Below the pieces are notes generated by a model, which worked only from the letters and a program-made list of their open reading frames with translations, did no database searches and was not told the DNA's origin. A stretch of DNA of 64,000 bases from Octopus vulgaris. Its lineage: Eukaryota. Positions 5,416-38,344 of this stretch are shown here, in pieces. Position 1 is the first letter of the stretch. Each line of letters starts with the position of its first letter. Location: assembly GCA_951406725.2 (NCBI GenBank), contig OX597825.1, positions 57,102,001-57,166,000 of the forward strand, given 5' to 3'. The position numbers and the translations under genes were made by a program.

Positions 5416-7041
5416 TCATTTATTTGTTTTCCATGTTTTTCCATGCTAGCATGGATTACATATTTTTTTCTGGACACTTCATAGATTCACCCCATTGCCT
5501 GCTGTAAAATGTAACTGTTTAGGGTGCAGAAAAGAATCGCCAAATAGATCTTGTACACGGAGTGTACCTAAGAAACACTTTTGTGATTCCAGCAAGAATT
5601 ATTACTCTTTTATTCTACATCCAACCTAATTTGTAGGAAAAGACTAGAAAGAGTTGTTGGTGTGGATTACTTTCCAGCAGTAAGCTAAAGGTAAAAAAAA
5701 AAAGAGGAACAAGGAAAAGAAATGAATGAGAGGAAGGTACCCAACAACAATCACTTAGACAACAAGCATTTTCATCGCTTCAGGGTTGATTTTGTGATCT
5801 TAAACTTTAGAAAGCACAGCTGTTAAAAATGGTAATATTCAGCATTGATGAAGAAACTTTGGAAACAACCTTGACAAGGAAATGTCAATGTGTATGTGTG
5901 TGCATGTGTGTTGGGAGAGGCATGGCTGTTTGTTATGTTAAAACTGGTTGTTATATAATCACAGAAACAGATCACAGAATGAATAAGATGAAAAGAAAAA
6001 CAACAAAAAAACCCAGAATCTATTGAATGAATCTCTTCTGAGAAATATGGTTACAATCACAAAAAAGTTGTATAGTTTAATAAGGCCAAAATACATACAC
6101 TAAAGTGAAAATAAATATTATGACACCAATATTAAGCAGGACTCACCAAGGATTTCATTTTCACAAATCATCATTAATATACCTTAATCAATTTAAAACA
6201 ACATTTCTGATTGTCATGAAATTCAAAGTAAGGTTCTTTATGAAGAATAACTCAACAGTACAAAGAAATCGAATTCCACTCCCTTTAACAAGAATCCCAA
6301 CATCAATACCTTGAAGAGATAAAATATGAGACAATTGGACAAAGAATACATGTGGTTACATCTTGGGAGCTCAAAGCTTGATCTCAGTGCATTTATAATG
6401 ATCTTTAATGAAATATTTAGTGAGTGTTCCTTAGTGCCTTTCAGAAGATTACTTCACCTGCATCAGTATATGTTTTTCTTGCATTTTTTTTTAATTTGTT
6501 GTTTTTTTGTCTGTACAACATTACAAGGTTTTTTATTTCTGTACAACTCTCTAACTGAACATTCAAAGATAGCTTTCTAACGTTAACAAAAACTAAGAAT
6601 TGAGATTGTTCCTTATTCTGTAAATAGTAAAATCCCAGTAAATACTATACCATATTTACATTAATAATCTCTTTAAATTAAAAAGAAAAAAAAACCTTGG
6701 CTACCAAATCAAAGAAGATTCTGGTAATTCCCTGTATATAAAATATCTACAAAATATTTCAGGGAAGAATGCACAGGAGTGTGCTTCTTATTACCTTATC
6801 CAAACCCCACACAAGGATTTGAACTTAAAAATTGCAAGCTAACAAATCACTTGCTTATGTTAGAGTTCTTACCAAATACAGCAATGTCGTATATTTACAC
6901 TATGGTACCTATTTACAGTTTGGTGGACTGAGCCAGTTATAACCAAGTCTTCGTTATGGACAACATGCAGAGCAGAGCTGGTGATGTGATTTGAACTTTT
7001 AAACTCTTTATTCAATAATATAATGCCCCACTGACACGTGA

Positions 7042-9758
7042 TCAGTTGGAGGAATTATCAATGGCAATTGTGGAAGAATTATCAACAGCAATCGTGGAGG
7101 AATTATCAACAGCAATCGTGGAGGAATTATCAACAGCAATTGCGGCAGAATTATCAACAGCAATTGTGGTGGAATTATCAACAGCAATGGTGGAGGTATT
7201 ATCAACAGAAATTGCTGTTTCAACAAAGCTTGTATTCTGTTGGTCGTCTAACACCTTTATTTCAATGTTTGGTGTGTCGATAGTAGCAACATCAATACGA
7301 CATGTGGTTACATGGCTCTCCGCATGCGCTAGAGAGGAGAAGACAGCATTACACTCACTACACATAAACACTTCTGGCATCTCCATCAGCTGAGCAGCCT
7401 GTGCCGCAGCCTGCAGAATGTTGCCTTCTGGGATACCAGATAAGTTTGACATATCGATGACAATGTCGTTTTGATCCCCCACTGGAATGGCAATGTTTTC
7501 ACCAGACTCTACCTGCTGTTGTTCCAGTTGAAGTCCATCAACTGTTAATGTCATTCCATCACTGATAACCGTTCTGCTCTGCTGCCATGATTTATCTCCT
7601 TTACAACGAGGTTGGTGGTGTTTCAGTGTAGCTGAACACGAAAACGGTTTGTTACAGTTCTGACATACATATTTACTGATTCCAGTATGAATGACCATGT
7701 GTTGAATAAGTTTCGACTTAAATTTAAATGCTCGATCACAACATGTACACTTAAATGGTTTCTCTGTAGTGTGGATATGAATCTGATGTTTCATCAACAT
7801 TGTGCGGAAAGCAAACCCTTTGCCACACAGCTGACATTTGTGAGGTTTGTTGCCGGTGTGTTTGTTGAGATGATCATTGAAATTAGCTTTACTGATGTGT
7901 TTCTGACCACAATAGTCACAAGTAAAACGATATTTTCGTTTGCTAACGTCTTTGTGAGTTTCTAAATGGTCTTTAAGAGTATTGCTTTCAAAGAAACGCC
8001 AGCCACATAAGTTGCATTCGTGTTTCTTAATGCCTTCATGTCGTTTCATGTGAGTGCGGAGGTAACGTATATGATTGAACTGTTTACCACACTGCTTACA
8101 CTGAGCTGCTTTCTCTTTTGTGTGAACAGCCTGAATATGAGTAATTAAATGGTTCCCTTTTGAAAAGAGTTTCCCACATAAATTGCACAACTTAGAATCA
8201 TCTACATGAGTTTCTTTGTGATTAATCAAAGCAGAATAGTTCGGAGCCACAAAACTGCATTGATTACATTTCATAGAAGTCTTTTTGGGATCGGGTTCCT
8301 TAGTAATTTTGTGCATAAAACTCATGTGCCAATTCAGTTTGGCAGTACCCTGAAAGCTTTTGCCACACACAGAACAGTGAACAATAGCTAACTGGGGAAA
8401 TGGTCCATGTTTACGAGACAGATGGCTCTTTAAGTCAAACAATCGATCGAAAGTTCTTTGACAGACATCACAACGCAATGGGTTTTCTATGTTGTGTTCT
8501 TGCCTTAAATGTTCAGTAATTATATCAAATTGATTATCCTGTAAGCCACACAAGTGACAAAGCAGGTCATAAGTGTGAGATGAAAGCTGTTTTGATTCTG
8601 TAGTTTTAGGAGTTTGATTAAAGGTGTTCCCAGCATACCTGGAATTTACTTCACTAGTAGATGATGATGATAAGGATGATGATGGTCCTCGACCACTTAT
8701 ACCAGCTGCAGCTAATTCAGACTTCAAATCATTCCTATTTCTCTGTCTTTGCCTTTTTTTGGAAGTGAATAAATCCCGGATGGTAGGTAATACAGCAACG
8801 TCTGACATTACTAATGGCTTGAAAACACGGGATTTAGGTTTTTTGCTAGAATCTTTTGATTTAGAAGGATTAGCACTAGTTGAAGATGCTTTAGAATTCT
8901 TCTGACTAACAGTATCACTTTGAACAGTTACTTTATCATTATCATTGTTCTTATTATTATCATTAATACTACTACTAGTGTTACTCTCATCATTTGTGAG
9001 TTTATTAGTTTCAGAACTGTCATCAATTAACATAGCCTCATCAGGTTTACCACTGTCTGAACAACTGGCACCAACTGTTTCTGAAGATGGAGAGTCTTCA
9101 TCACTCGAATCATTTAAACCATTTTCAGTGTTCATTTTAAAGAGTTCGCTTTTCTTGGGTTTTCCCACAAGGAATGAGAAATCAATTTTCTTCCCACGGG
9201 TAGAATAGCGTTTGCTATTTAACAGGTGACTATCAGCATCTGGGGTCATGTCATCGGCATCATCAAGATCTTTTTCATAAACAGTTTCTTCAGAAGCATT
9301 AACTTTATTACTAATCTCTTTCCTTGGCCTTCCTCTTTTCCTTTTGATTGTTTTAGCACCTGGACTTTGTAAATCTTCTATGGTTGAGTCAACTTTTCGA
9401 ACTTTAATATTGCTTGGGTTCAAACAGTTGTTTAGCTTTCGAGGCCGCCCACGTTTTCTGGGAGAAGATGGTGAGGCCACCAAACTAGTTGCTGGACTCT
9501 CAGGATGTTTCTCACCATTGTCTTTAGATCTTTTGGAGCTGTATTCTTTCAAAGTAACTTTTGTATCTTTGTCAGAATTATTTAATGCCCGTTTGTTCAG
9601 CTGCTTTGAAGACTGGTTAGAACAGGTGTTTTCTGGCGTTTTATCACCATTAACTATGTTGGAGGGATTCATTTCAAGTGAAGGTGGAATTCTCTGTTCT
9701 GACAGCAGGCTGACTTCAACTTGTATGCTGGCATCCATACAATTCTTTGGATACAAAT
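7042..9758 (-). CDS. Zinc-finger gene, terminal coding exon: two AT-hooks, 12 C2H2/C2HC fingers, C-terminal octapeptide repeats
   Basis: Long ORF with a polypyrimidine/CAG acceptor at 9761-9759 (phase 1, G|AT = Asp). Contains PRKRGRPRK and KRKRGRPRK, fingers with HTGNKPHKC, HTTEKPFKC and HTGISKYVC linkers, and TGA at 7044-7042. Confidence 0.93.
7045..7215 (-). repeat. Coding 24-bp tandem repeat (~7 x AVDNSSTI)
   Basis: Repeated ggaattatcaacagcaatcgtgga units, in frame at the C-terminus of the zinc-finger protein. Confidence 0.9.
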
Positions 9759-10779
9759 CTGAAAAAAAAAAAAATAAATAAAATAATGGTTTCTGATTAA
9801 AGTACAAGGCCAGCAATTTTGAGGGATGGAGAGTGGTCAATACAATCAACCCCAAACTTAAACAGAGCTTTAATTTATTGATCCCACCGAAAGGATGAAA
9901 GGCAAAGTTGATTCAACAGGATTTGAACTCACAATGTAAAGAGCCAGAGAAAAACACCACAAAGTACTTTTTCTGACATTCTAGCGATTCTGCCAGTTTT
10001 ACTGCCTTTATGGCATTTTGATTTAGACACAAGGCCAGCAATTTTAAGGGAGGGGGACTAGTCAATACCATCAACTCAAGTATTTGATAAGTATTATATC
10101 TCATCATCCCTAGAGGGATAAAAAGCAAAGTTGGTCTCAGTAAGAATTGAACTCAAAATGTAAAGAGTTGGAAAAATACCACAAAACATTTCTTCTGTTT
10201 TAACAGTTCTACTATTCCACCACCCTCATATAATAATTGATTCTAATTAAGGCACAAAGTGCGCAAGTTTAGGGTAAGGGAACAGTCAATTACATCAAGT
10301 CCTGTAACTGGTACTTTATTTTATCAACCCCGAAAGAATAAAAGACAAAGCTGACCACAGTATGTCTCCACTCCCTATTTTACAGCTGAACTCAAGATGT
10401 AAAGAGGCAAAAGAACAACAACAAGGCATTTTGTCCAACACTCTCACAATTTTGCCAATCCCCTGCCCAGAAGGATGAAAGATAAAAAGTTGACCTGGGC
10501 AAGAACACAAAGAGCAGTAAATATCATAAGGGGTTTGGGCCAACACACTAATGCCAATCTGCCAACCATTTCCTTGCAAATATTAATGGAATGTTGATTG
10601 TGTATTTAAGATGCTGGACTACAGGCCTATTGACCAAATGGTTAGTAGCTCAAGCCGATCTACTGTAACCATTATAATACCTATCAAATACTGGTGTTGA
10701 TGGTATTGATAAGTCTCCTCCCCATCCTGAGTACATCACCTTATACTGTTTATTCTACCTGGCTGAGAAAAACAAAAAT

Positions 10780-11062
10780 TTTACTCTCTACCTCTCAACT
10801 GATTAGTCAAAGATAGGGAGGAGTATCATCTAGTATAATCTACTCCCTACTTCACGGTCGACCGGACAGCAGTAGGAAAGAATATCATCCAACATATCTC
10901 TACTCTTTACTTCTCAATCGGTTAATGGTAAGAAGGTATACTATCCAGCATATCTACACTCTACTTCACAGTTGAACAGGTAATAATAAGGAGTATTAAC
11001 TAGTATACTCCACTCTCTACTTTACAGCTGAGTGGTTAGTAGTAAGGAATATTCACCTAGCT
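10780..11062. repeat. Degenerate intronic minisatellite, ~55-bp unit, ~5 copies
   Basis: Recurring gagtat(c/t)a.c(t/c)agtata..c.actc.ctactt(c/t)ac.g.(t/c)ga pattern. Confidence 0.65.
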
Positions 11063-11298
11063 ATAAAAATAATTATGATAAGAAATAAACCATCTTGCTT
11101 ATGCAAAAAATATACATGTTGTATGGAAAACAATTCCAATCTGACACCATTGAAGACTGGGTCCTTTGATTCACTTGTGCCACATTCCTGGACATAACAT
11201 TTGTTAATTCTCTTTCAAATGTAGTCGGTCATTGGGGAGTGGGGTTCTGACTTTAGACTACATGCTTCATATGGCCATTAAGAAAATAGTTTACTGAC

Positions 11299-11377
11299 CT
11301 TCATCAGTCTGAGTATTTTTCTCTTCATATTGTTTTGTGGGAATAACTTGTTCTGTATTCAGATCTCCAATAATGGC
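11299..11377 (-). CDS. Zinc-finger gene internal exon (79 nt, AIIGDLNTEQVIPTKQYEEKNTQTDE)
   Basis: ttttcttttcag acceptor and G|gtcagt donor. Phase 0 in and phase 1 out match both neighbouring exons. Confidence 0.8.
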
Positions 11378-11856
11378 CTGAAAAGAAAACAGTAAAGATG
11401 ATTAGGCCAAACATGAAAAACATGTATAGAAAATGTCACAGCTTGCATTTAGAGAAACCACAGTGTGCATAGAGAAAATAACATACTTTTTGGCATACAA
11501 GTCAAATTTTTCAAAATTTACAGACAAAAAAGATAGGTCATATATACACTGAGATGAAATGCTGCAGGATTTTAAAAGATAGAGATGATGAACAAATGTT
11601 TACACTACATCATGATCATGATCATTATCATCAATATTTAACATCCATTTTTCATGTTGGCATGAGGTGGGCAGTCGGACCAATGCTGGCAAGCCAGAGA
11701 GCTGCACCAGGATCCAGTCTATTTGGCTTGGTTCCTGTGGCCGGCTGCACATCCTAATGCCAATCACCTTACAGTGTGTGCTGGGTGCTTTTTACATGGC
11801 ACCAGCACATGTTTGCGCTATATACTACACCAACTTCTATGCTGGAAAATACAGTA

Positions 11857-11909
<53 letters not shown>

Positions 11910-11959
11910 GTTACAATGTGTATATAGAGAAAATATGAGTATACAGTAAAGAAAGTAAC

Positions 11960-11993
<34 letters not shown>

Positions 11994-13279
11994 CACTCAA
12001 ATAAACTAGTGATCACTGACCTCAGAGTAAGGGCAGGATAGACTCAAAGACAAGAGGACAATCTGGAGAAAGAATGTATGAAAGCTGAAAGATCCCATAC
12101 AAAGAAGTAGTAGTTGATGCTTATGAGTAAAAGTGACAGGGAAATAATAGAGTCTGTAAATGCACAAGAGATGTAGTGAGATGACAGTGGGACGATGTGA
12201 TGAAATACATAGAAGATTGGAAACCAAAGACATAATTTGTATGACAGCAATGCTTATTTATATATTCTACAAATAATTATAAGCGTTTACCATGTATTGG
12301 CTAAAGAAAATGGTGTTATATAGGAGCATATAAGCCCCCAATGGAAAAAATGATTATTAGAATGAGTGGGAATCAAACCCACAACTCCCTCTTATTTTTG
12401 TTATAAGAGTGCAAAATATATTGTGAAATAAGAGGTGTGGGCTCAATTCCTGTGTACTAATACCCATTTCTTTTTCAGTCACAGGCTTATATGCCCCAAT
12501 ATTAGACTATTTTCTTTAGCTAATACATGGTGAATACTTATAAGCTTAAAGCTTATAATAATTATTCAGAGAATTTTCATTCATCACCATTTCTTAATTT
12601 AATGCAGTATATATATATATATATATACGCATATATATATGTATATGTGTATACACACATACACCCCCACCCCACCCAGGCTTCTTTCAGTTTCTGTCTA
12701 TCATATCCACTCACAAGGCTTTAACTGGCCAGGAGCTGTAGTAAAAGACACCTGGCTAATGTGTCACACAGTGGGACTGAACTTGGAACCATGTGGATGG
12801 AGAATAAATTTCTTCACCACACAGCCATGCTAGCACCTGTTTGTACAGAAATAAATGCCAGATAATAATTTTCTATGGATGTTGACATAATGATAAATCA
12901 GATGACTTTATATGGATTTTTAAAAATTGTTTTTTAGCTTTATGATATAAACTTTTGTTCGTTTATTTTCTTCTTAAGTGTACGTTAATTAGACAAAATA
13001 CTGTAGTATTTTTATTTTACAGTTTCATTCTATGTCAGGTGAGAAGTAACAATAATCAAGAGAATTATGTGTGCAATTCCTAGCTAAACATGCAACAACA
13101 GCAGCAGCTTGCATCATGTCACTGCATGAACTTGCAAACATAGCCAACACATATGTCAGTATGAAAAAACAAAAACAAACGAAAAAATACAAAACAAGAA
13201 AAAAACAGACAAGAGTCAATAACGATTTCAGAAATTTTTGTTTGATTTTTCTCTGCAAAGCTAGAAGTGAAATTCTTAC

Positions 13280-13486
13280 TTTTAACACCAAGTCTTTTGA
13301 CATTTCTAGAACTTTCAGATTTCCAACTAATTCATGTACAGGAAGACTTCCCAGTTCTCCTTCGCTCCAAATCAATTCAGCACCAGTACGTAGGGCAATA
13401 TCAGAAAAGATCTCCTCAATGTTGCCTTTATCACGAAGAGCATCGAGACATTTATTAGACAACTTGGCAATCACATGTTCATAGAC
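13280..13486 (-). CDS. Zinc-finger gene internal exon (207 nt), KH-like segment
   Basis: tttttgcag acceptor and AAA|gtaaga donor, phase 0/0. Encodes VYEHVIAKLSNK...DIALRTGAELIW...LVGNLKVLEMSKDLVLK. Confidence 0.85.
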
Positions 13487-13804
13487 CTGCAAAAATAAAG
13501 AGGAGAAAACAGGAAAGAATTAATTCATTACATGTTTAAAACAGGAAAGATGACTTCACTAAGGAAATAATGAGGGCCCTGGCCTACTGTAAAAGAAATG
13601 ATTAAATAAAAGGGTTCAGATCTGGTTAACAAAATATTTAAGAATGAATGAATGTTTGTTATATAAGTTGACAAATACAAAAGTTCTTTATTATTCTCCT
13701 TTCTTACATACTTAGGACATGGCTTAGATATTTTCAGAGATTTACAATTCTTTATCAAATATACATTAGCATGAGAGAAAGAGAGAGAGAGAATGTGTGT
13801 GTGT

Positions 13805-14160
13805 CATAACTGTGTGGTAAGAAGTTTGCTTTCCAGCCAAATAGTTCTGGGTTCAGTCCCACTGCGTGGCACCTTGGGCATGCATCGTCTACTATAGCCC
13901 CAGGCCAACCAAAGCCCTGTGAGTGTGTGTGTGTGTCTTGTATTTATATTTGTGTTTGTTCCTAACTAATGCTTGATAACCAGTGTTGGTTTGTTTATGT
14001 CCCCGTAACTTAGCACTTTGGCCAAAAGTTACCTACAGAATAAGTACCAGGCTTAAAAAAAAAGTTAAGTACAGGGAGTGATTTGTTCAATTAAACCTTT
14101 GAATTCAGTGCCCCAGTATGGCCACAGTCCAGTGAGTGAAACAAGTAAAAGATAAAAGAC
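13805..14160 (+). mobile_element. tRNA-headed SINE (most abundant family in the window)
   Basis: tgtgtggtaagaagtttgcttt...gggttcagtcccactgcgtggcaccttggg...(TG)n...gaaacaagtaaaaga. Many similar copies elsewhere in the window. Confidence 0.8.
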
Positions 14161-15189
14161 ATTTGTGTTTGTGTGCAATCAGTACTTAAGATCTCATATG
14201 GCTACAAGATGTTTTGTGAAACTACAACACAGTTACATAGATTCAGGCCAGCTATTTTAGGCTTTGTATTCTCCTGACATGTTGCTTTTGGGGAATGGAA
14301 GTGGAATGGATGATAATTTATTCACTTAAGGAAATTATCTCCCTTAACTTAGAGAAAACCAAAAATGAGGAAATGAATGGGAAAATTCTATAAATTAAGA
14401 ATTCCTTGCCCAGTTAGTTAGTTAGTTTGGCTGTCCTCCCAGACACATCAATAATTTTATGTGAGCATACCATCCATCGTGGTCCGCCAAGCAGGTTTTT
14501 AATTTGTTAACATTTACTATTCTGCTGTCCTGAAACAAACTGTCCACATAAGTTAAACGTTTTCTTTCCCTGTTGATCATTCCTTCAACTGACTACCATA
14601 AGAACCAATTGACACACAGGTTCGTTGCCCAACCATTAACTTAATTGTCTAAATAACCTTATAGCTAAATAATTAATAGTAATTAACTAAATTCATGTCA
14701 CTGGTCCCTTTTGAGTTATTGTCCTTATCTAATTCATCATCATCATTTAATATCCATTGACCATGCTGGCAGGGGTTGGACAGTTTGACCAGGGCTGGCA
14801 AGCTGGAAGGCTGCACCAGACTCTAGTCTGATTTGACATGGTTTCTACCTCTGGATACCCTTCCTAACACCAACCACTCCAAGAGTGTAATGGATGCTTT
14901 TACATGCTACCAGCACAGGTGCCATTTGTGTGACACCAGTATCTGCCACGACTGCAGTTTTGCTTGGCTTGATGGGTCTTCTCAAGCACGACATAAGGCC
15001 AAATGTCTGTCATTGCCTCCACGAGGCCAAACACTTGAAAGGAGTTCAGCTACTTTGTCTCCATGAGGCTTAATGCTCAAAAGGTGATTTTTATGTGCCA
15101 CTAGCACAGGTACCAATAATGTGACACCAGCATCAGCCACAACTATGACTTCACTTGGCAAGTCCTCTCAAGTGCAGCACATCACCAAA

Positions 15190-15629
15190 CGTCTTGGTCA
15201 CTAGTCATTGCCCCTGTGAGGCCCAAAGTTCAAAAATGATGCTTCACCATCTCGTCTACCTCCACCACAGGTTCCCTCCACAGTTAGAGATCAGCACTTC
15301 TTTACACAGCTGTCCTCGTCCATACACATCACATAACCATACCAGTGCAGTCGTCTCTGTTGCACACCACATCTAATGCCTCTTATTCCCAACTTTTCTC
15401 TCAAGATGCTTACTCTCTGACAAACATGCATGCGGACATTGCACATTCAGCAAAGCATACTAGCTTCATTTCTTTCAAGTCTACGCGTGTCCTTGGTTGT
15501 CACAGCCCATGTTTCACTGCCATGTAGCATAGCTGTTCACACACAGGCATCATACAATCTGCTTTTCACTCTGAGAGAGAGGCCCTTTGTTGCCAGCAGA
15601 GGTAGGAGCTCTCTGAACTTTGCCCAGCC
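15190..15629 (-). mobile_element. RTE LINE 3' fragment (same family as 2297-4278)
   Basis: Reverse complement matches GWAKFRELLPLL...VKSRLYDACV*TAMLHGSETWAVT. Confidence 0.85.
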
Positions 15630-16168
15630 TTCTATTAAACATGGAGAAGAATCTGTGATGATCTGGGGAGCTATATCTTGGAAATCCACTGGCCCAATGG
15701 TTCCCCTTCATGGTAGAATTAATAGTCAAGACTATTTAAGCATTTTATCTGATCAAATTCATCCTATGGTTGCAGAACTGTTTCCGGAGGGAAACGTAAT
15801 CTTTCAGGATGATAATACTCTAATTCACACAGTTAAAGTTGTTACTGAATGGCATGAGGAACATTCTAGTGAAGTTGAACATCTCATCTGGCCACCACAG
15901 TTCCCAAATCTCAATATTATTGAACATTTATGGTGCATTTTAGAAAAACAAGTAAGGAATCAATATCCTCCACCATCATCACTACAAGAACTGGAGAATG
16001 TTTTAGCTGAAGAATGGACAAAAATTCCTTTGGAAACAATTCAAACTTTGTATGAGTCCATACCTCGTAGAATTCAAGCTGTAATTACTGCCAAAGTTGA
16101 TTCTACCCCTTATTAAAATAAATTTGTTTGAAATTTTAAGGTGTTTCCATTATTTTGTCCAACCCCTG
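15630..16168 (+). mobile_element. 5'-truncated Tc1-family transposon, catalytic half intact (DD36E spacing)
   Basis: KHGEESVMIWGAISW...FQDDN...WPPQFPNLNIIEHLW...YESIPRRIQAVI..., stop at 16116. The right TIR ends ...gtccaacccctg followed by TA. Confidence 0.88.
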
Positions 16169-16363
16169 TATATACCCACATACATTTACACATATGTACA
16201 TACATGCATACACACTGGGTTTCTTTCAACTTCCATCTATCTCATCCACTCACACAAGCAACCCAGAGCTATAGCACAAAACACTTGCTTATGGTGCAGC
16301 GGAGTTGGACTGAACATGAAATCACAGGTGCAATATGTGTAGAATAAATAGTAAAGGAGATAC

Positions 16364-16773
16364 CTGAAAATCTTCCAAGGATTTTGGTTCACATAACACT
16401 TCACCTTCCTCAACATCCTTATCATCACATGTTACTTCAGACGGTGGTTCCCCAGTTTGCTCATTCCCTCCAATGTTACCGTTTTCAGCCACAAGAAATG
16501 AAGGCGACAGGTCCACATCGGCATTTGTCTTTTCCTGTTCTAGTTTCTGCCCAGATTCTCCATTGACAGAAAAATTCTCTATTGCTGTTACACTCGACTC
16601 ATTCTGCTTTAAGACTTTCATACAGACAGACCCAGGACAGATTTTTAAATGACGAGCAAAGCTTTTGCGCCGCCGCCGGGTCGATCCACAAATGGGGCAG
16701 TGAAAGTGATAGCGGATTTTATTACAACCTTTCTCAAGCTCACAACGTCCATTACAGAGGAGCACTGAGTATT
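16364..16773 (-). CDS. Zinc-finger gene internal exon (410 nt), B-type Cys/His half-module plus acidic linker
   Basis: ttttacag acceptor (phase 1) and CAG|gtatct donor (phase 0). Encodes YSVLLCNGRC...YHFHCPICGSTRRRRKSFARHLKIC. Confidence 0.87.
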
Positions 16774-17529
16774 CTGTAAAATAGAATAAAAATAAAATAT
16801 ATAATTAGGAGTAATCATGGCTGTGTAGTTAAGAAGCTTGATTTGCAACCAACCATATGGTTTCAGGTTCAGTCCCACTGTGACACTCTGAGCAAGTGAT
16901 TTCGACTATATTTATGAGCAAATTTGGTAAACAAACTGTGAGGAAACATGTCATATGTACACACACACACACACACATACATACATACACGTATATGTGT
17001 GTGTGTGTGTGTGTGTCCTGCCACTGCATGACAACCAGTTTTGGTTTGTTTACATCCAACTAACTTAGTGGTTCAGTAAAAGAGACTGACAGATTAAGTA
17101 CTAGGCTTTAAAAATAAGTATTAGTGTCAAATCGTTCAATTAAACATTTTAAGGTAGTGCTCCGACATGGCCACAATTCAATAACTGAAACAAGAGATAA
17201 AAGATAAAATATATACTTTTTCATTTCTATATATGTATAGAGGAAACCTTTACAAGTGTTGTACACACAAGTGTACAATGCACATATATATATATATATA
17301 TATATAAGACACCCTCAACTTAAACACTGAAGAGGAGTGTAAAAGTATTGTGCCCATATGTAATATAATTGTATACTTTCCAAAACCTGTTTCTGATATT
17401 GCATCATAGCAGAGCTATGATTGGAATTTAAAAAACAAATTTCCAATTATATTCACTTTTATTTTGTAATCATATTATTTACTACTATGCATCAATGCCT
17501 GTCATAAGTGACCTAGTCATCGTTAAATA

Positions 17530-18000
17530 AGATAGAGTATCAACAAGATACAGCAGGACAAAGTGTCAGTGAGACAGAGTACCAGTGAGTATCAGTGGGA
17601 TGTAATGGAATAGAGTATCCGAGGTATATTAGGATAAAGTATCAATGCATATAAATAGAGTGCTAGTGAGATTTAGTGGGAGAGAGTACGAGTGAGATAT
17701 AGTGGAATAGAGTATCAGTGAGAGAAAGATATCAGTGATCATTAGAGAAATAGAGTATCAGTGAGTACAAGTGAAATTTAGTGGAATAAAGTACTAGTGA
17801 GATATAGTAGAACAGAGTATCAGTGAGTACAAGTAAGATAGGAGACAGAGTACCAATGAAATTTAGTGAAATAAAGCACTAGTATGATATAGTGGAATAG
17901 TGTACCAGTGAGATTTAGTAGAATAAAGTACTAGTGAGATACAATAGACTAGAGTACTAATGAGATATAGTGAGACAGACCACCAGTGAGTACAAGTGGG
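17530..18000. repeat. Degenerate intronic minisatellite, ~26-bp unit (gagtatcagtgagatatagtggaata)
   Basis: About 15 diverged copies running up to the donor of exon 18013-18196. Confidence 0.8.
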
Positions 18001-18012
18001 TTATCTCTGTAC

Positions 18013-18196
18013 CTTTATATTGGATCCGTCTCTTCCAGTGAGCATAGTAATGGTACTGAAGGTGTTGCAAGAAATTGGGTTTGAATTTCTCTTTTGTACA
18101 CAAGGGACAATGGTACTTATGGCCACAGCTACAGTCAGGAGCATAACACTTTTCCATGGGTAGATCATTCAGGGTACGTACAATGGACTGGTGATA
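18013..18196 (-). CDS. Zinc-finger gene internal exon (184 nt), A-type Cys/His half-module
   Basis: ttttttctag acceptor (phase 0) and G|gtacag donor (phase 1). Encodes YHQSIVRTLNDLPMEKC...YHCPLCTKEKFKPNFLQHLQYHYYAHWKRRIQYK. Confidence 0.87.
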
Positions 18197-18588
18197 CTAG
18201 AAAAAAATAGAGACATAGACTGAGGTTACATTACTACATAAAATATAAATGCAATTTGTTATTAGGGTACATACAACAGATTGGTGGACACTACATTCTA
18301 AGTTAAATGATATCTGACTAGTATTCTACAGTAAAATGAGAGTGAACTGGACTAATTACAATATTTAGTTTATATTTATCAAAATTTTGAATTCAAATCC
18401 AACAACAGGGTTGGCCTTGTTGATCATCCTTCTGGAGAGATTTATAAATTAAGCATCATACATATAGCTGCAACAAATGGAGAAATTAACTGCACTAAAT
18501 CTACTAAATCTTCATCCATTTTTAATGAGCCACTACATAAAAGTAAAGGATTTAATGAGAAACAAAGCAAGGACATTGGTTAGCTTAC

Positions 18589-18923
18589 CTTTAAACCTTC
18601 AACATCACGAGGATGAGGAACTTTCTCAAAATCTTTTTCCAAAAGTATTGTAGCCTTTTTCCAATTGTCTGTCAGTGCTTTGGAATTGCGAGGCTGTTCC
18701 ATGCAGCGCCATAAATGGTTAATGAGTGGACTCCGTCGGTTTCGCAGAACATTGCAAAGTGGGCAATGATAATGTGGTCCAGATCTTTGTACATCAACTG
18801 TAGAAGTATCAGCTGAAGATTCTGAAGCCTTCTCCCCATCAGCAGGGGTCGCTGCATCCGAAGTAGTTTTCACATTTGCAGTTTTATAACATGATTCGTT
18901 CTTACAAAGATGGATTTCTTTAC
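18589..18923 (-). CDS. Zinc-finger gene internal exon (335 nt), B-type half-module
   Basis: ctttgttcag acceptor (phase 1) and AAG|gtaagc donor (phase 0). Encodes KEIHLCKNESC...GPHYHCPLCNVLRNRRSPLINHLWRC. Confidence 0.85.
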
Positions 18924-21646
18924 CTGAACAAAGATGGAAGATTTTTTTTCTCAAATCGTCAAAAAGAGTGAAAGACCAAAGTACTTAGTCCATTAAAGAC
19001 AGTTGGAAGAAACATGATCTTTACAACATCTATTGCCCTAAGCTCATGAGGTTAATAAAGCTTATCACCATTTCACAGATATTGAGATATCATTTAGCTA
19101 GAGTAGCATATCTTCTCCCCGAACATCAAAAAGTCAAGAACCAAATATATCTATCATTTACGATAATCATCATCATTCCTGTTTTATACCCACTTTCCAC
19201 AGTTGTATGAAGTGGATGAATCATCACAGCCCAAGTCAATTATTTTCTGAAGCTACTGCTCCCCTAGACCAGCTAAAGGACCACTAAATACTTAATTGTT
19301 TATCCTTTCACATCAGCATCCTCATCATCATCAAGATTTTAGGATCTGTTCTTTCAGTGTCATAGGTCAGCACTACAATTTATCACATCTCATTTTAGTC
19401 TTTCATCAGAAGATATGTAGTGCCCAGCTTCTTCAGAATCTCATGTCCCACTTCCTCCTATGTGTCCTCCTTCCACAAATGTTCCCAACTGATGAACAAA
19501 GAATACTTTCACTCCAATACTCACCATCTATTCATTTCATATATCCATACCAATATAATTAGCTCTCATATGTATTGATGGGTTTAATATGCTCTTACTA
19601 TTTCAGTTCATTTATATAGTCAGCCTTTCCTACAGATCATACTAACCTCATTCTTCTCCTGTCTCCATAGATCTTACACATTCAGTTTCACATCATACTA
19701 CAATGCTGCATCAAACTTCGTACACAGGCAGTCTGCCTTTTGCATCAATAGAGGAACTCTTGGCAAGAATTCCTTAACAACTACCACTGCTACTCTAGCT
19801 ACTCTGCTTTCACGACATCTCCACTCAGCTCTAATTTAAGCCACTAAGATAACAGCAAGTATCATTTACATCTGGTGAGTCATCTGAATGGTTTATGAAC
19901 TTTAGTGTAAGGTTGTTTCTGTTATTACCCATCCTATATAAGCATTACATATCAAGTCTTGGTTCTCTGCAAACTACTAACTTTAACACAGCATACATCT
20001 CCCCTTGTACATGGCTTCTGCAAGACCTGAGCTTTCTTCTGCTATTTCTTTATTGTAACTACTATACACTATCATCATTTAAATTCCATTCTCCATGCTG
20101 GCATTGATTGGATGGCTGAAAGGAGCCAGCCAGCTGGAGCTGCCCTGCCTGAGCTCCATTTGTTTGTTTTGGCATGATTTCTACAGCTGGATGCCTTTTT
20201 TTCTCCTGTTATTAGCACTAATAAGGGTTGCCAAGTAACTCACAAGACTAAAGAGACCTCTCAACTGAGTGGGAGTTTGGTCGAGAAGGATGTAGCTTTT
20301 ATGCTAGGTGTTGAGAAGGACAGGAACAGATTTTTTGCTGTAGAGGAGATACATGGTTATCTTGCATTAGACATAGGACACAGTGATGAGAAAGGATCTT
20401 CTGACATTGGGTTCACAGCAGCGATGGCAAGGGAACAAGACTTCTGGCAATTTGCTATACTTGAGAAGACATGTCAAAGTAAGTAAAAGTGTGGTTGTTC
20501 TAGCATACAAGCATGTCCCCTGCATCCTTCTCCAGCCAAGCATTTCTCATCTTGCAAGCCTGTGGTTGCTGGTGACATGTGAAACCACCCATACCAATGC
20601 TCCTTAAAAGCACCCAGTACACTCTGTAAAGTGGAAGTGGTTGGCATTAGGGAGGGGCATCCATCTGTAGAAACTATGCCAAAACAGACATGGAACCTGA
20701 GCAGTACTTCAGTAGGCCAGCTCCTGTCAAACCGTTCAACCCATGCCAACATGGAAAACATACATTAGATGATGATGATGTTTAGATACATGTAGAGACA
20801 GAGACAGACAGACAATCAGAGAGATAGATAGAAAATTGTTTATGTGAGCTCGTGGGTGCTGGCATCACATAAAAAGCACATGCGCTGGTGCCACATAAAA
20901 GCACCCAGTATATTCTGTAAAGTGATTGACATTAGGAAGGGAATCCAGCTGTAGAAACCATGCAAAAGCAGACTTGGAGACCAGGCAGCTCTTCAGCTGG
21001 CCAGCTCCTATCAAACCGTCACCCATGCCAGCATGGAAAATGGACGTATGATGATGATGAGTTGGAATAATCAGGGTGGAGCTGGAAATAGAGACAAAGC
21101 ACTGTAAAGAGTCAGAGTGTGCCTGCAATGCACAAGGTAAATAGAAGAGAGTATGGGGAGAATGAGAGATGGCTAGACAGTGTGTATGTGTGTGTTTGCA
21201 TTCGTTTATATTTAGTTATCCAAAATCACTCAGCCATAAGCAGTGAATTGCTGTCACTTCTTGTCACTGAATGAACTGCTAGCTTTATGGCTCTAACAGT
21301 AGACATTTGTCTTTGTTACTGCGCAGTGGGACACCTTACCCAAGGTGTTACACAGTGGGACTGAATGTGCATAATTGGAAAGTGAACTGTGCCATACATT
21401 CATACCTGTGCATGTGTGTGTGTGTGTGCAATATGTGATGTGTATATCTGAGCATTTATTTATATTTACGCTTCTCCCAAAAGCCACTCAGCTATGAGTA
21501 CTGACTTGCTATCATTTCTCCCTCTCACCAGCTTTATGTCTCAAAGATGTGCAGAATAAGATATCCCTTAAAGAAAACAGGACAGGGTTAGCAGCAAGAA
21601 GGATATTTAGCCATGAAACAATTCCTCTATAATATATTCATCTAGC

Positions 21647-22014
21647 CAGGAGTTCTCAACCATTTTTTTATTTATTGACCCCTTTGATTACTGTTTTATT
21701 CTGGTGGACCTCCACCCCACCATAGCCATTCGATGTTTAAAAACTAGTTTTATAGAAACTTCTTTCAAAATTCCTATTTTGCTTTCTACACATTTCCTTG
21801 CGTGGGTTAAACTACGTAAAATATTAGAGAAAGAAATCTAAATGTTTCCTGCAATACATAGTAATATGTATATCTATATCAAAAATTTTTTCAGGGACCC
21901 TTAAAATACCATTGTGGATTCCCAATTTATTATTTTGTTGTGTAGTTCCCCAAATTACTATTATCTTGTGTGAACCACCAAAAATCTTATATGGATGCCA
22001 GTTGAGGACCACTG
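21647..22014. mobile_element. hAT (Charlie-like) non-autonomous MITE
   Basis: TIRs caggagttctcaac and gttgaggaccactg. Flanking duplication atctagc(c/t) resembles the NTCTAGAN hAT target. Confidence 0.75.
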
Positions 22015-23691
22015 ATCTAGCTTATGTAAAAACAGATGTAAAAACAAACATAGGGAAAAATACATAAAGACAGTAACAATAATAATAAAATGCCCTGATG
22101 CAGTATCTGGTAGTGGCTATCATGGCTTTTGATCTTAACTGATTGGAAGTGTTTTGTCTTGGTATTAAAGATGGACTACAGCAAATATTCTGCTCAGTAC
22201 CACATACTTACTTGTCAGTTGCTTGACCCTAACCAGTTGAGCATGTCTTTTAGTAGCTGATGATAAGTGCATCTTTGATTATCAGCAGGAGTAGTGGGAA
22301 AGTATCATAAAGGATGTTGAGAGGAATTCTTTGGGGTTTGAGTAATTCATCTATGGAAACATGGGTGTTTCATTCATCAACCTCAAACAACCCTTATTCA
22401 AGAACCTTTTGGGTGGGATGGGCTACTTGATGTGATGAGAATTCTAACTGGGCCCCCACCTGCAAAGTTATGTGCTGTTTATCTTGATATGAAATCACCA
22501 CGTCATACACATATGGTTGTGATGCATGTGCCTGGTGTACCCTTATTAGATGGGTATACTGGGCATTGTATATTTGTACCCCAGTGTCACTTTGATGGCA
22601 TGCATTGCTCTCACTCAATAATAATAATAATAATAATAATAAAATCTTACCATATCCTTTGATAGTATTTGGATATTTTGGATCTGGCACAGAGATACAG
22701 CTTTTATCCTTGCCCTTAAATGAAATATTGTATTCAAACATTAATATCATCTCATTGTAAAACATCATCATCATCATCATCATTTACTATCCACTTTTCT
22801 ATGCTTGCATGGGTTGGACAGAACTGCTGAGGTAGATTTTCTATGACTGGATGCTTTTTCTGTCACTAGCCCTCACCTGTTTCTGAGTACTCTTAATCTT
22901 TTATTTGTTTCAGTCATTATAGACTGTGGCCATGCCAAGGCACTACCTTGAAGAATTTTTAATTGAATGAATTAACCCCAGTACTTGTTTCTTTTTTACT
23001 TTTTTAAAGCCTGACATTCTATCACTCCCTTTTGCTGAACTGTGAGGTTACAAGGACGTGAACACACCAAAACCGGTTGTCAAACACAGTCACAAAGACC
23101 TACACACACACATGATAAGCTTCTTCCAGTTTCTGTCTACCGAATCCACTCACAAGACTATAGTAGAAAACACTTGCCCAAGGTGCCATGCAGTGGGACT
23201 GAACCCAGAACCTTTTGGTTGGGAAGCAAGCTTCTTACCACACAGCCACACCTGCACCTTTAAGGTAATACTTTCCCTATCACCAGGCATGTTTTCATAA
23301 AAGATTGAAAACAGAAGTCACCGCTTGCATGAAAGTGATACTTGCTCACAACTATCATGCTAAGTCAAAGCACAAAGATCAATACAATCACACACACACA
23401 CACACATGCATATGTGTATGTGTGTGTGTGTATTTGTATAAATACAGGTGTATTTAAGCATGGGTATGGCTCTAATAGTAGACATTTGTCCTAGGTACCG
23501 CGCAGTGGGACTGAACCTAAATCCATGTGGTTGGGAGGCATACTTCTTATTATACTTATATATGTAAGCTATGCCTGTGCCCTCAGTCAATATATATTTT
23601 TTTCTCCTAGATACAAAATCCTTTATAAATGAAAAGTTTCTGTATCTCTGATACAAGACAGACAATATCATATTGTCTGCTCTATGTATAT

Positions 23692-24031
23692 GAAGGTGCA
23701 TGACTCAGTGGTTAGAGCATCAGGCCCACAATTATGCAGTAATGAGTTTGATTCCTGGACTGGACTGTGTTTTGTGTTCTTGAGCAAGACACTTCATTTC
23801 ACATTGCTCCCGTTCACTCATCTGTAGAGATGAGTTGCAAGGTCACTGGTGCCAAGCTGTATCAGCCTTTGCCTTTCCCTTGGATAATATTGATGGTGTG
23901 GAGAGGGGAGGCTGGTATGCATGGATGACTGCTGGTCTTCTATAAACAAATTTTCCCAGACTTGTATCTTGGACGGGAACTTTCTAGGTGCAATACCTTA
24001 GTCATTCATGACCAAAGTGGGTCTTTACCCT
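23692..24031 (+). mobile_element. tRNA-derived SINE with CORE-like central region
   Basis: A box (tgactcagtgg) and B box (gtttgattcc), then tgttcttgagcaagacacttcatttcacattgctcc. Related copies at 56760-57075 and 57682-57800. Confidence 0.7.
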
Positions 24032-24536
24032 TTATCTGTATGTAGTATGTGGTGAAGTGGTGTGATGGCTGGCAGCAATACAGATACACAGTCTGTGAAT
24101 ACAGATGAATCTTTAACAATCAGTGTGTAAAGAATTGTGTATGAACTATTGGATGAGCAGACGAGTTTATGGGAAAAGTTGAATACAGTTAAGGTGTAGT
24201 ATAATAATAATAATAATAATAATTATTATTATTATTATTATTATTAGCTGCTGCTGCTACTAATTTAAACTAAGAATGCAGGGAGCTGGAACAAATGCCA
24301 TGAGGAATTCCATATAATGCTTTAACAATTCAGACTATCAACCTCCTCTTTAGATATGAAAAATTTTTTTAAACTTTTAAATCAACATTTTATATTTTGA
24401 TTAATATCAAACTGAATTTGAAGTCAAAGCCTTAGTTTCTAAACTAAAAGTAACACTTTTATCTACTAGGTCACAGGCATGAGGAGTACACAAAACTACA
24501 ACTATATAAAACAATGACTCATCTCAAGACATTTAA

Positions 24537-24728
24537 TCCTTTCGTAACTAAATTTCTGTTGAAATGCACTACCTATGTTTCAATTAATAAAGAATTTAGC
24601 AAAATGGCTTTGTCATTATTAAGTTGAGAGCATAAATTCACAAGAAAGGTTTTAATTTAGATTGTTTTAAAATAGGAAGTTTATATCGTAGAACCAGGGC
24701 AGTCTCAAGTAGGTTGGTATCAAAGGGG
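24537..24728. mobile_element. piggyBac-type MITE
   Basis: TTAA on both sides and (t/c)cct...aggg(g) termini. Homologous, in inverse orientation, to 59270-59485, with a partial copy ending at ~26468. Confidence 0.7.
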
Positions 24729-24777
24729 TTAAACATAATATAAGCATAGAATTTAAAATGAATATTTAAAGACTTAC

Positions 24778-24912
24778 ATACCATTTTCTTCATATGCGAA
24801 TGTAGGTGCAGAGTAAAGGCATAGCGCTTCAGCAATTTTGAAGGACAGTAAGGGCAATGATAATGTCCAGCTATCTGACCACAAGACCAGAAACATTTCA
24901 CTATAGTTACAT
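24778..24912 (-). CDS. Zinc-finger gene internal exon, B-type half-module (two overlapping donors)
   Basis: atttcag acceptor (phase 1). Encodes VTIVKCFWSCGQIAGHYHCPYCPSKLLKRYAFTLHLHSHMKKM. Donor GTATGTAAGT allows an exon end at 24782 (phase 0) or 24778 (phase 1). Confidence 0.85.
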
Positions 24913-25432
24913 CTGAAATCAGTAAAGAAAATTACTTGGTTTCAAGTCCCTGATATGGAAATGATTTTACAATCAACAATGCAACTGCACACCATCTTTA
25001 ACACCAATTTCAATTTTGTAGTCTTAAAATTTTCCAACTCAATTTCTTCCCTCCACCCTACCCCTACTCCATGCCAATGCATCCCATCTGGAATCCCCAT
25101 GGCTACCCACGGGGAGAGGGGGGAGAAGGCGAGGGAGATGGAGGAAGGGGAACAAGGAGGGGAGAATGAAGAACAGGAAGGGAGAAGGAAGGGAATAGGA
25201 GGGGAGAAGTAGGGAAGGGAAGGAAGGAGAAGAGGTCAAAGAGAGAAGTAGGAGTATGAGGAGTAATGGAGGGAAGGATGGGAGAGGAGGAAGAGTTGTG
25301 GAGGAAAGAGGAAGAGGAAAGGGGAGGAAGGAGAGAGGGAAGAGGAAATTGCGATGAGCATGGACAGCAGCAATAATCCCTTACATCTCAGAAATTCTTG
25401 AATTACGTAAGAAGAAATCTTTGAGTACCCAC

Positions 25433-25619
25433 CTTCAGCTTGTACTGCATAGGAGAGATGTAGCAACTCTAGGTGATCTCTGACCCGATGTGATTTTGTA
25501 GGTTTGAAGTGATTGATATCACAGAAGGGGCAATGGATCTTCCCATTGCAGCAGTTCTCAGCTGTACATATGTCCAAAATGATCTCTTGGCCTTTCAAAA
25601 TGATGCCATGATGCTTGGA
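25433..25619 (-). CDS. Zinc-finger gene, most 5' identified coding exon (187 nt), A-type half-module
   Basis: ttttcattacag acceptor (phase 0) and G|gtgggt donor (phase 1). Encodes SKHHGIILK...CTAENCCNGKIHCPFCDINHFKPTKSHRVRDHLELLHLSYAVQAE. The start-codon exon was not located. Confidence 0.85.
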
Positions 25620-29312: not shown

Positions 29313-30567
29313 TAGGGTACGATGGGTAAATTGTCGCCATTCTATATTTTTAATTTCGTGCATGTGCACTTTTTGTTTTTAATTTTGTCGACTACATAGT
29401 ATGGTAGGGTCAGTTGGGCACTGTCTGTGAGAAAATCAGCACCATGACGCAATTCACTCTGCCAGAAATTTGAAAACGACATGCTGTACTGCTTTGCATT
29501 CACACCAGAAGCGCCAATATGAACATTTCAGAGTGTTTGGGAATCAGCCTGAGGACAGTGCAGAGGATTTGGAAAGAGTTGGATGAGTCTAATAGTGACT
29601 ACAAAGGTATGGCAGCTCAGAAAACTCACTCTGATTGGTCTGATAAGAAAAGAACTCCTGAATTTGTTCATGAGATCTAGGCTATGATTGACAATGATCC
29701 CTTCAGGTCAATCAGGTCCATGGGAGTGTGAGTTTCTTACCAGACAGGTAGTGCATGAAGACATTCACTATTCCCCGTACAAGATGAGAAAGGGCCAATT
29801 TTTATCCCAAGCTATCAAGGACAAGAGAAGAGACCATGCTATGAAGCTTTTGAACAAACTCAAGCATCCCCTCCAACCAAACATGCTTTAGTTTCTGCCA
29901 AGATCAGATGGTGAACACAGAACAACCGCTGACTTGCCATGTTCCCAAAACATGTACCAAGAGTGATAAAAATCAAATATCCAGTCAACATCATGGTGTT
30001 TGGAGTGATCACTAATGATGGCGACATTATGCTTCCATTCATCTTCCCACACAGCCTCACACTCAATGTAGAGGCCTACATCAAGTGTCTGGAGTTAGTG
30101 CTGCCCTGGGTCAAGAGGGTGGCTGCTAGAAGACCCTATATCTGGCAACAGGACTCTGCACCATACTACACAAGGAGAACTCAGTCATGGCTGTCAGACA
30201 ATTTCTGTGACGACATCACCCCTAACATCTTGCCACCTAACTCCCCAGACTGCAACCTCTTTGATTATTATGCGTGGGGCACAGTTGAGCAAGAAACTAA
30301 CCAAACTCCTTGTAACACCAAAGATGAACTGAAGGCAAGGATTATGGCAGCATTCACCAACTTAGACAAGGAAACCAGAGTTACAGAAGGTTCCGAAGTC
30401 GTCCAGAGGCTATGGTTGAAGCCAATCATGATTTTATTAAATAAATTTACTCTTTAGTATTTCAAGATATTTTTATGTAATTTTGGTAAATATATCTCTT
30501 AAAATGAGATGTCAGTGTTATTTTCATTTCTGTGTAAATTAGGTGACAATTTATTCACTGCACTCTG
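29313..30567 (+). mobile_element. Decayed Tc1/mariner transposon, DD37D (maT)-like, second family
   Basis: TIRs tagggtacgatgggtaaattgtcgcc and ggtgacaatttattcactgcactctg with TA flanks. ORF 29939-30457 contains IMVFGVI, WQQDSAP and LPPNSPDCNLFDYY. Confidence 0.87.
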
Positions 30568-33719: not shown

Positions 33720-34670
33720 TAAAGGGAAGTAACAAACAAACGTACAAACCTACAAATAAAACGTGAAAAAGGAGCTCACATGGGAAACAGTATCTTTGTC
33801 TTTATGTGTATGTATGTATAGATATATATATACACACAAACAAACGTCGTTAAAGGAGGGTGGTTGTGTGGTGGTATGATGTGCGTGAGAGGTTGTTAGG
33901 CATGTTTTTACTTTTAACTACGAAAATGAAAATGGTGTAATCGAGAACAAAAAACAAGGAAGCTAATCTTCAACTTTCCTACCTATGAAGAAACGATTAG
34001 TGAATGTGCTTTTCGATTTCTTATTAAACGTCATCCTTAATTAGGAAGACATTGGGCAAAATATAAATGTAATATCATAACCTATACAAATATATGCGAA
34101 TGTAGGTGTTTATGCATTCCTGTACATGAGTATACATTACTACAAATTTTTGTATATACTCATTTCAGCAGATACCAATAGCTTTTTATACTCGCACTAA
34201 AAACACGACTCTACCTAAGCCACGAATTTTTGTGTGTCTTTTGTGACTTTTATATGCAGTAGCACTGAAATCGTCTACACGCGTTTCTGTGTGACATGTA
34301 TAGTCTATTGAATAGATAGAGGCAGAGACAAATGTGTGATCTGTGTTAAACCCGAAACGGGAGTGCTGGGTTAATAAATACGGTCTCTCAAACTTGCATT
34401 ATTGCTACAAACAATGATATATAAAACAAATAATTGTTACCGTGGAATTTTCTTGTTCGCTCATGTTCGTTTTTTAAGGTACGAACACACATACATACAT
34501 ATACGTGTATATATATATATATGTGTGTGTGTGAGTGTATATCTATATAAATATATATATAAATATCCGTCGTTGATTTTAAATAAATTAATTAGAATTT
34601 ACTTAGCCATAACAGTTCAAAACCTGTGTGGAACTCTCCTGGCAACTTTGTAAACAAGGGAGATAATGCT
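33720..34670. promoter_or_regulatory. Candidate (possibly bidirectional) promoter/5' region of the zinc-finger gene
   Basis: Unique, CpG-enriched sequence upstream of the first found exon. Minus-strand donor-like sites at 34214 and 33982, a plus-strand donor-like site at 34479, and AAGGGANNTAA motifs at 33722 and 34656. Confidence 0.35.
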
Positions 34671-37129: not shown

Positions 37130-38012
37130 CAGTCACAGCATATCTCCAGAGGTCTCGGTCTTTCGTCATAGCTTCTGTGAGGCCCAATGTACGAAGGTCA
37201 TGCTTGACCACCTCATCCCATGTCTTCCTGGGTCTACCTTACCCTGGATTCCCTTCAACAGTTTGGGAGTAGCACTTTTTCAAACATCTCTCCTCATCCA
37301 TACATAGTACATGACCATACCAACGCAAATGTCTCTCCTGCACACCACATTCGATGCTTCTCATGTCCAACTTTCTCTCAGGGCGCTTACACTCTGTCGT
37401 GCATGGACACTGACATTACACATCCAGCGGATCATGCTAGCTTATTTCTTTTGAGCCTATGCATGTCCTCCGCAGTCACAGCCCATGTTTCACTATCGTG
37501 AAGCATGGCAGTTCGCACACATGTGTCGTACAATCTACCTTTCACTCTGAGCGAGAGACCCTTTGTCACCAGTAGGGGTAGGAGCTTTCTAAACTTTGCC
37601 CAGGCTATTCTTATTCTAGTGGTAACACTCTCTGAGCATCCACACCCACTACTAACTTGGTCACCTAGGTAGCAGAAACTATCAACTACTTCTAGTTTCT
37701 CTCCCTGGAGTGTAACTGAATCTGTTTTCTGAGTATCTGTGGTGTCTATTGCCCCTGTGCATCTGCCGCACATGAAAGCTATCTTCTTGGTTAATTTTCC
37801 TTTGATGTTGCTGCACCTCTTATGTGTCCATAGCTTACACTGGATACATCATATGGAGTTTCTACCTACACCTTTTCTACAGATCGAGCAGGGCCACTTA
37901 CCTAAGGGGATGTGTGGTGAGTTCGCCTTCCTACTTACTAGAACTTTGGTCTTTACTACATTGATTCTAAGGCCTTTTGATTCTAAACCTAGCTTCCACA
38001 CATGAAAGTTCT
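37130..38012 (-). mobile_element. RTE LINE fragment with PHD-like insert
   Basis: ORFs 37849-38106 and 37432-37773: WKLGLESKGLRINVVKTKVL, KWPCSICRKGVGRNSI, FCYLGDQVSSG...RIRIAWAKF. Confidence 0.88.
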
Positions 38013-38344
38013 TTTTACTATTTCCTAATGAAACTGGACCAAGGAGAGAAGGTCTACATACCATAGTAAACACCAAATGCATAAAGTGGCAATGGCTCAT
38101 GAGCATAGCTAAGAGTTTTTGATATGCAACAATGAATGATGTTAGAACTGCTGAGCCACGCTGTGATGATGGTCAATGTCAACGACAACATATGATTATC
38201 ACTCTAATTTCAAGTTTATTTCAAACATTAGAATATGTTTCCCTGTGAAAATAGTTGTTTCTGTTATAAGCATAAAGCCTTTAATAACTATTTCAACTTT
38301 AGGTTCAAGGCTGGGAATTTTGAGAGAAGGGTGTTAGTTAACCA

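Follow-up and report, generated by a model that had tools for sequence, protein, structure and literature searches.

What protein is produced when exons encoding tandem Cys/His modules precede an array of C2H2 zinc fingers, and where did the module come from? The question arises from a stretch of 64,000 nucleotides (nt) of the Octopus vulgaris genome (GenBank assembly GCA_951406725.2, contig OX597825.1, positions 57,102,001 to 57,166,000, forward strand), hereafter the window, to which the coordinates below refer. A first-pass annotation, made from the sequence alone, reported five exons encoding alternating half-modules, denoted A and B, joined to a C2H2 exon, and likened them to the N-terminal zinc-binding region of TRMT1L, taking the module to be putatively RNA-associated. 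All five lie in one 10-exon gene on the minus strand (34464-7042), and the ten-exon translation is identical at every residue to P0001, the product of O. vulgaris LOC115217962 (1445 amino acids, aa), which is named only "uncharacterized protein". We read the gene most readily as a C2H2 transcription factor conserved in molluscs, to which a mobile, Castor-like accessory domain with several zinc sites, probably spread by transposons, has been added.

A spliced gene of ten exons

The gene structure is summarized in Table 1. The five module exons are found at the positions originally reported, with AG/GT ends, A exons running from phase 0 to phase 1, and B exons that all start in phase 1 and end in phase 0. 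Their signal is above chance: a profile derived from 229 non-mollusc copies of the module matches, at a cut-off of E<=0.05, exactly these five of the 2820 open reading frames (ORFs) of the window (E-values 2e-12 to 5e-5), and the best match among the same ORFs reversed has an E-value of 0.2. The first-pass annotation overlooked four coding exons, namely the first one, the 64-nt exon, the KH-like exon and the linker exon, and assigned the conserved histidine of A2 to residue 292 instead of residues 296 and 300. The order A-B-B-A-B holds for the five exons as such, but becomes A-B, stump-B, A-B once the missed 64-nt exon, likely the remnant ("stump") of a lost A half, is taken into account.

Table 1. 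Coding exons of the octopus gene, in the order of transcription
Feature	Window position	Strand	Residues and reading phase	Remarks
First coding exon	34441..34464	-	aa 1-8, phase 0 donor	
Exon A1, module 1 first half	25433..25619	-	aa 9-71, phase 0 to 1	187 nt; profile match
Exon B1, module 1 second half	24782..24912	-	aa 71-114, phase 1 to 0	profile match
Small exon	22651..22714	-	aa 115-136, phase 0 to 1	64 nt; sequence conserved in mollusc orthologues
Exon B2, B half with low-complexity insert	18589..18923	-	aa 136-247, phase 1 to 0	weakest of the five profile matches, E 5e-5
Exon A2, module 3 first half	18013..18196	-	aa 248-309, phase 0 to 1	184 nt; profile match
Exon B3, module 3 second half and acidic linker	16364..16773	-	aa 309-445, phase 1 to 0	profile match
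KH-like exon (K)	13280..13486	-	aa 446-514, phase 0 to 0	without canonical GxxG loop; FUBP1 KH E 0.005, weaker KHSRP, Nova-1, BICC1
Linker exon (L)	11299..11377	-	aa 515-541, phase 0 to 1	
Last coding exon (Z)	7042..9758	-		two AT-hook cores (aa 643, 682), 11 tandem C2H2-type fingers (aa 941-1260), lone finger (aa 1340), 7-aa repeat tail, stop

Reads were placed on positions 6800-16900 from 4 of the 24 listed runs, representing four studies, which we presume to be RNA although none is recorded as such. In each of the 4 runs, a single contig spans the B3, KH-like, linker and finger exons in order, placing the module exons and the 7042-9758 exon in one gene, as originally proposed. CT..AC ends are listed for two of the three joints, and the third is represented by adjacent record positions. 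These contigs extend past B3 by 979, 446, 764 and 1106 letters; the upstream coding exons sum to 925 nt. Additionally, whole orthologues of 1292-1661 aa, complete with modules and fingers (P0009, P0018, P0027), are each encoded on a single Logan contig (three contigs, 4137-5113 nt); these contigs must hence be spliced. The possibility that the module exons form a separate gene, or are chance matches, wrongly joined to the C2H2 exon could draw on the finger-exon-only proteins in the database (P0003-P0007, 858-872 aa) and on the shorter predicted isoforms P0010, P0012, P0013 and P0015. The contigs from all 4 runs, the mollusc orthologues, the exact P0001 translation and a profile that picks precisely the five exons largely refute it, and we give it next to no credence.

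The gene appears to be single-copy in the octopus genome (the counts being lower bounds), where no convincing further module copies were found. Eight base differences in exon B3 (16442-16610) are common to 3 of the 4 runs, and one at 8515 to all 4; these are likely to be alleles rather than editing because the kinds of change are mixed.

The Cys/His module

Each A+B exon pair encodes a single module of about 100 aa that enters and leaves in phase 0 (0-1-0), so that copying or moving the pair would leave the reading frame intact. The exon-pair duplication proposed by the first-pass annotation is supported. P0001 contains module 1 (aa 10-110), the stump with its B half (aa 115-210; 20 mollusc proteins have a matching segment) and module 3 (aa 248-354). 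Eleven Cys/His positions are conserved in 96-100% of 288 module copies (a count that includes isoforms), a twelfth is Cys or His in 82%, and five further N-terminal Cys/His positions are conserved in 67-79%. This pattern bears out the zinc ligands originally suggested, and each module is predicted to form three core zinc sites and an optional fourth. The module is basic, with a median net charge of +8 over the 288 copies and +14 in octopus module 3. In the A half, the finger has a longer spacing than DNA-reading fingers do, and it shows weak similarity (E 0.016) to the fingers with which TAX1BP1 binds ubiquitin.

No family of the Pfam library searched covers the module: single exons and 22 module copies gave only sub-threshold zinc-finger matches, and sequence searches of the PDB yielded only generic C2H2 fingers. 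Structure prediction produced a confident single-module model of a relative, P0173 (predicted local distance difference test, pLDDT, 85.8; predicted template modelling score, pTM, 0.72), with two helices, a hairpin and few strands; the underlying 56-sequence alignment matches the cephalopod alignment with a profile-profile probability of 99.6%. Foldseek with the P0173 model found no match at E<=0.001 in the PDB or among viral models. The best fold match among 48,161 chains is to the tandem C2H2 fingers of ZFAT (Z 3.6, root-mean-square deviation 5.5 over 58 residues). The absence of a fold match does not show that the fold is new.

The Castor finger may be a distant relative. The top Atlas match for module 3 is zf-C2H2_CASZ1 (PF26743; score 0.95), and PF26743 is precomputed on three of the module-search matches (P0055, P0059, P0061), although P0061 did not score with the module profile, and on P0001 no such annotation is precomputed. 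The B half layout Cys-Cys-His-x-His-Cys-Cys-His-His/Cys is one that we take to be Castor-like. The module differs from Castor/CASZ1 in the fixed A+B pairing with a beta-hairpin link and, presumably, in its CxxC motif as opposed to a longer Castor spacing.

Judged from literature listings, we found no publication that describes the module or the gene; Iyer et al. 2014 (PNAS), the description of the KDZ transposons, or its supplement may cover the module. The main text of PMC12513265 contains neither the locus identifier nor "castor", and its supplements probably list the gene among C2H2 proteins.

Distribution and duplication history

The mollusc survey that had been proposed as a check recovers the same layout beyond cephalopods. 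Named records of the protein come from three Octopus species (the cluster members include O. sinensis and O. bimaculoides) and from Argonauta and Sepia. Orthologues are found in bivalves, gastropods and a chiton with E-values from 1e-84 to 1e-28, and the whole layout of modules, KH-like domain and C2H2 array is kept from chitons to cephalopods. Look-alikes with the same three parts and 1-5 modules are present in the brachiopod Lingula, the nemertean Lineus and the annelid Owenia.

In a quick tree of 114 selected module copies, mollusc modules 1 and 3 form separate groups from chiton to octopus, with support of 90 and 87, respectively; the duplication is therefore old and not an octopus novelty, and two full module copies are inferred to predate the split of chitons and cephalopods. 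Module number varies from 1 to 5 across lophotrochozoans, several of which have two paralogues (P0034/P0038 in Liolophura, P0030/P0032 in Gigantopelta, P0036/P0040 in Lingula, P0057/P0157 in Owenia); in Patella, an additional protein (P0083) contains four modules and lacks any Pfam match.

On a larger scale, the module profile matches 646 protein clusters at E<=0.001, and 235 at 1e-10, among 1.84 billion proteins. The best 150 of the 646 clusters were listed, and 159 matches were scanned with Pfam. The named carriers include teleosts, hemichordates, a crinoid, amphipods and an ostracod. Two matches, the repeat protein P0188 and the long plain C2H2 array P0165, were judged false and removed from the module counts and the tree, but are still included in the 159 scanned. 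The amphipod carriers are not the published Imagin gene, for which PMC12863088 gives a different locus identifier. Breaks or insertions near profile position 60, the site of the octopus intron, occur in a handful of fish and other proteins (P0084, P0114, P0153, P0169, P0089, P0090, P0065); coming from protein sequences alone, these are only suggestive of an intron position shared with non-molluscs.

The KH-like domain and the zinc-finger array

Downstream of the modules, the 69-aa KH-like exon yields a profile (17 sequences) that matches the helix-strand-strand-helix part of the FUBP1 KH domain over 40 of 68 profile positions. The Pfam KH match is below the cut-off (best E 0.055, in 1 of the 17 sequences), there is no usable Atlas match, and the domain belongs to no Pfam family. 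Type I KH domains (FUBP1, KHSRP, Nova-1, BICC1) carry a GxxG in the loop that connects helices 1 and 2, whereas all 17 aligned sequences lack it there; the octopus domain has a single GxxG-like string, which falls in a later variable loop. This degenerate domain is more likely to be a scaffold than a canonical RNA reader. It stands behind the modules in 34 of the 187 stored module proteins (isoforms included), and always in this position in the lophotrochozoan C2H2 proteins.

The tandem C2H2 array of P0001, 11 fingers plus one, is confirmed by PF00096 and PF13465. The base-contact residues of the core fingers are kept in molluscs: of 12 proteins, 10 have RY at +2/+3 of one finger, and 8 have ND at +3/+6 of the second finger after it. 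Conservation of these residues across the 12 proteins points to a DNA target conserved within molluscs. The 7-aa repeat tail at the C-terminus (7045-7215, minus strand) is longer in O. bimaculoides (P0011) and absent in Argonauta (P0002).

Partner domains and a possible link to transposons

The relatives recovered by the module profile, among the best 150 of the 646 clusters, are transposon-type and chromatin proteins, not tRNA enzymes. C2H2 arrays are found in many of the 159 scanned matches and CxC4 in 10; the other partners are THAP (2), the integrase core (2, below the cut-off) and TINF2_N (2), and hAT dimerisation, BESS, Myb-like, PHD, PWP3A-B_C, copia gag and DUF4806 domains occur once each. 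The tRNA methyltransferase domain PF02005 is present in none of the 159, nor, as the first-pass annotation had stated, anywhere in P0001 (no match at E<=0.5).

Among these relatives are the CxC4-bearing proteins associated with KDZ (Kyakuja-Dileera-Zisupton) transposases from fish and other animals (PF18717). These carry the same module of about 100 aa, at full length and N-terminally, often in 2-3 tandem copies, and the fish-dominated alignment matches the cephalopod one with a profile-profile probability of 99.6% (E 7e-24); the Pfam CxC4 model itself does not include the module. The octopus protein differs in that P0001 has no match to either CxC4 or the KDZ catalytic domain, and instead combines the module with the KH-like domain, AT-hooks and the C2H2 array.

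Weighing the explanations

We put the probability at roughly 55% that this is a mollusc-wide spliced gene whose C2H2 array and AT-hooks bind specific DNA, and whose N-terminal Cys/His modules, each predicted to hold three to four zinc ions, make further contacts with nucleic acid or chromatin and possibly derive from a transposase. Under this scheme, the finger array, together with the AT-hooks, would direct the protein to specific sites in DNA, and the basic modules would provide the additional contacts, a role that N-terminal zinc domains have in transposases. Each half of a module would be a Castor-like unit, in which a small Cys/His cap packs against a C2H2 finger, and in-frame duplication or movement of the A+B pair would account for tandem copies and for the promiscuity of the module, the hints from outside molluscs being indirect. 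The least certain elements are the ligand of the module and the direction of transfer between transposons and hosts.

Several observations weigh against this scheme. Most of the 159 scanned matches have no Pfam partner at all; at the thresholds used, the KDZ catalytic family is not reported in any of them; and the transposon-type carriers are classed by domain content, not by repeats, copy number or target duplications. The backbone of the tree is largely unsettled (53 of 111 inner branches with support below 80) and does not place the mollusc modules inside the transposon ones. The modelled module is that of P0173, not an octopus copy, and the N-terminal 356 aa of the octopus protein, modelled with 4 sequences, have no usable fold (pLDDT 34). 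Octopus module 1 has a net charge of only +3. The Atlas match to CASZ1 shares 152 of 256 features, against 170 typical of the same family, a count that fits a distant relative. The 5 non-mollusc proteins examined do not share the finger contact codes, and the joints supported by run contigs are those from B3 through the finger exon, not those upstream of B3.

The direction of transfer could be reversed. The module, akin to the Castor finger, may have belonged to chromatin proteins of bilaterian hosts from early on and been captured only later by transposons, which would be passengers rather than the source; we regard this option, which is compatible with the other explanations, as a tentative alternative that falls somewhat short of an even chance. 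It agrees with the stable host layout shared by molluscs, Lingula, Lineus and Owenia, in which a KH-like domain accompanies a C2H2 array, and with the low frequency of CxC4 among the scanned matches; a CxC4 search of the octopus genome found no match, a weak point given that the control was silent too. The many lineage-specific fish fusions (THAP, TINF2_N, BESS, Myb, integrase, hAT) and the N-terminal module of the CxC4 proteins argue for the opposite direction, such fusion patterns being typical of mobile-element spread. A different function is also conceivable, namely, that the module mediates protein interaction or oligomerisation, without nucleic-acid contact, like the KRAB, SCAN, ZAD and FiNZ domains located before C2H2 arrays, among which SCAN and ZAD are further N-terminal accessory domains of C2H2 genes. 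The gene resembles those with KRAB or FiNZ in having the accessory domain in its own upstream exons and the finger array in one large last exon (PMC10547256). Single C2H2 fingers with extra strands dimerise in Drosophila (PMC12774644), and both the long spacing of the A-half finger and its weak likeness to TAX1BP1 would suit such a function. The predominantly positive charge of the module, most pronounced in octopus module 3, is opposed to the acidic character of KRAB and FiNZ (PMC10547256). The octopus gene also differs from theirs in that its accessory part comprises 2.5 copies of a basic multi-zinc module along with a KH-like domain, and in being apparently single-copy, not a member of an expanded family. 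We consider a purely protein-binding module doubtful.

Least persuasive among the functional alternatives is that of the first-pass annotation, in which copies of a TRMT1L zinc region that binds RNA became attached to a DNA-binding protein, which would yield a factor bridging DNA and RNA; we deem it improbable. A resemblance of the module to the N-terminal zinc region of TRMT1L seems plausible. The sole hint at the putative RNA association is the KH-like exon, which follows the modules but itself has no canonical GxxG. The basic character of the module would fit RNA binding, and TRMT1L has zinc finger motifs and is nucleolar according to the accessible part of bioRxiv 2024.05.20.594868, where a role of that zinc region in RNA binding was not found. 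The Trm1 methyltransferase domain that distinguishes TRMT1L is absent from P0001 and from all scanned matches; vertebrate TRMT1L is not among the module-search matches from the best 150 of the 646 clusters, and may be in the other 496. Nor is there a module exon within 200 kb around the second Trm1 paralogue of the octopus (best E 0.016-0.12), though the 5' exons of that gene were not located.

This second multi-exon Trm1 paralogue (G000:C18:32561903-32578873, plus strand) is apart from the TRMT1-type gene on C4, and its exons L020:7151-7432, L021:2274-2531 and L021:8733-8873 match PF02005 positions 126-193, 189-249 and 339-374 in order. It presumably resembles TRMT1L, a gene that is absent from invertebrates according to bioRxiv 2024.05.20.594868.

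The gene and its surroundings contain presumptive fragments of mobile elements. Two intronic ORFs on the plus strand (15421-16113, 29933-30454) presumably resemble fragments of Tc1/mariner transposases, and three upstream of the gene (38342-39595, plus; 37435-37848, minus; 42712-43335, plus) are likewise taken to resemble LINE reverse transcriptase or gag-knuckle fragments.

Implications

The gene is thus of a familiar kind, and the module is apparently unnamed and not described in the libraries searched. The finding is broader than the first-pass annotation held, and no octopus-specific innovation is indicated. A more far-reaching scenario, which we consider speculative and rather unlikely, is that the module is an undescribed nucleic-acid-binding fold with three to four zinc ions, encoded as a phase 0-1-0 cassette, that was spread across bilaterians by KDZ-type transposons and repeatedly domesticated, in KH-like/C2H2 regulators throughout Lophotrochozoa, in many fish chromatin genes and in vertebrate TRMT1L. 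If this is true, the module would parallel, in lophotrochozoans, the accessory domains that zinc-finger genes of vertebrates obtained from transposons, and in the octopus protein it could connect DNA sites with RNA. An origin from KDZ-type transposons would make this a very ancient case of domestication in transcription factors of non-vertebrates, and would also suggest where the zinc region of human TRMT1L came from.

The C2H2 genes of molluscs and cephalopods are well studied as a family, with their accessory domains barely known. What emerges here is a definable domain of about 100 aa with a confident predicted structure and hundreds of bilaterian carriers, small enough for expression.

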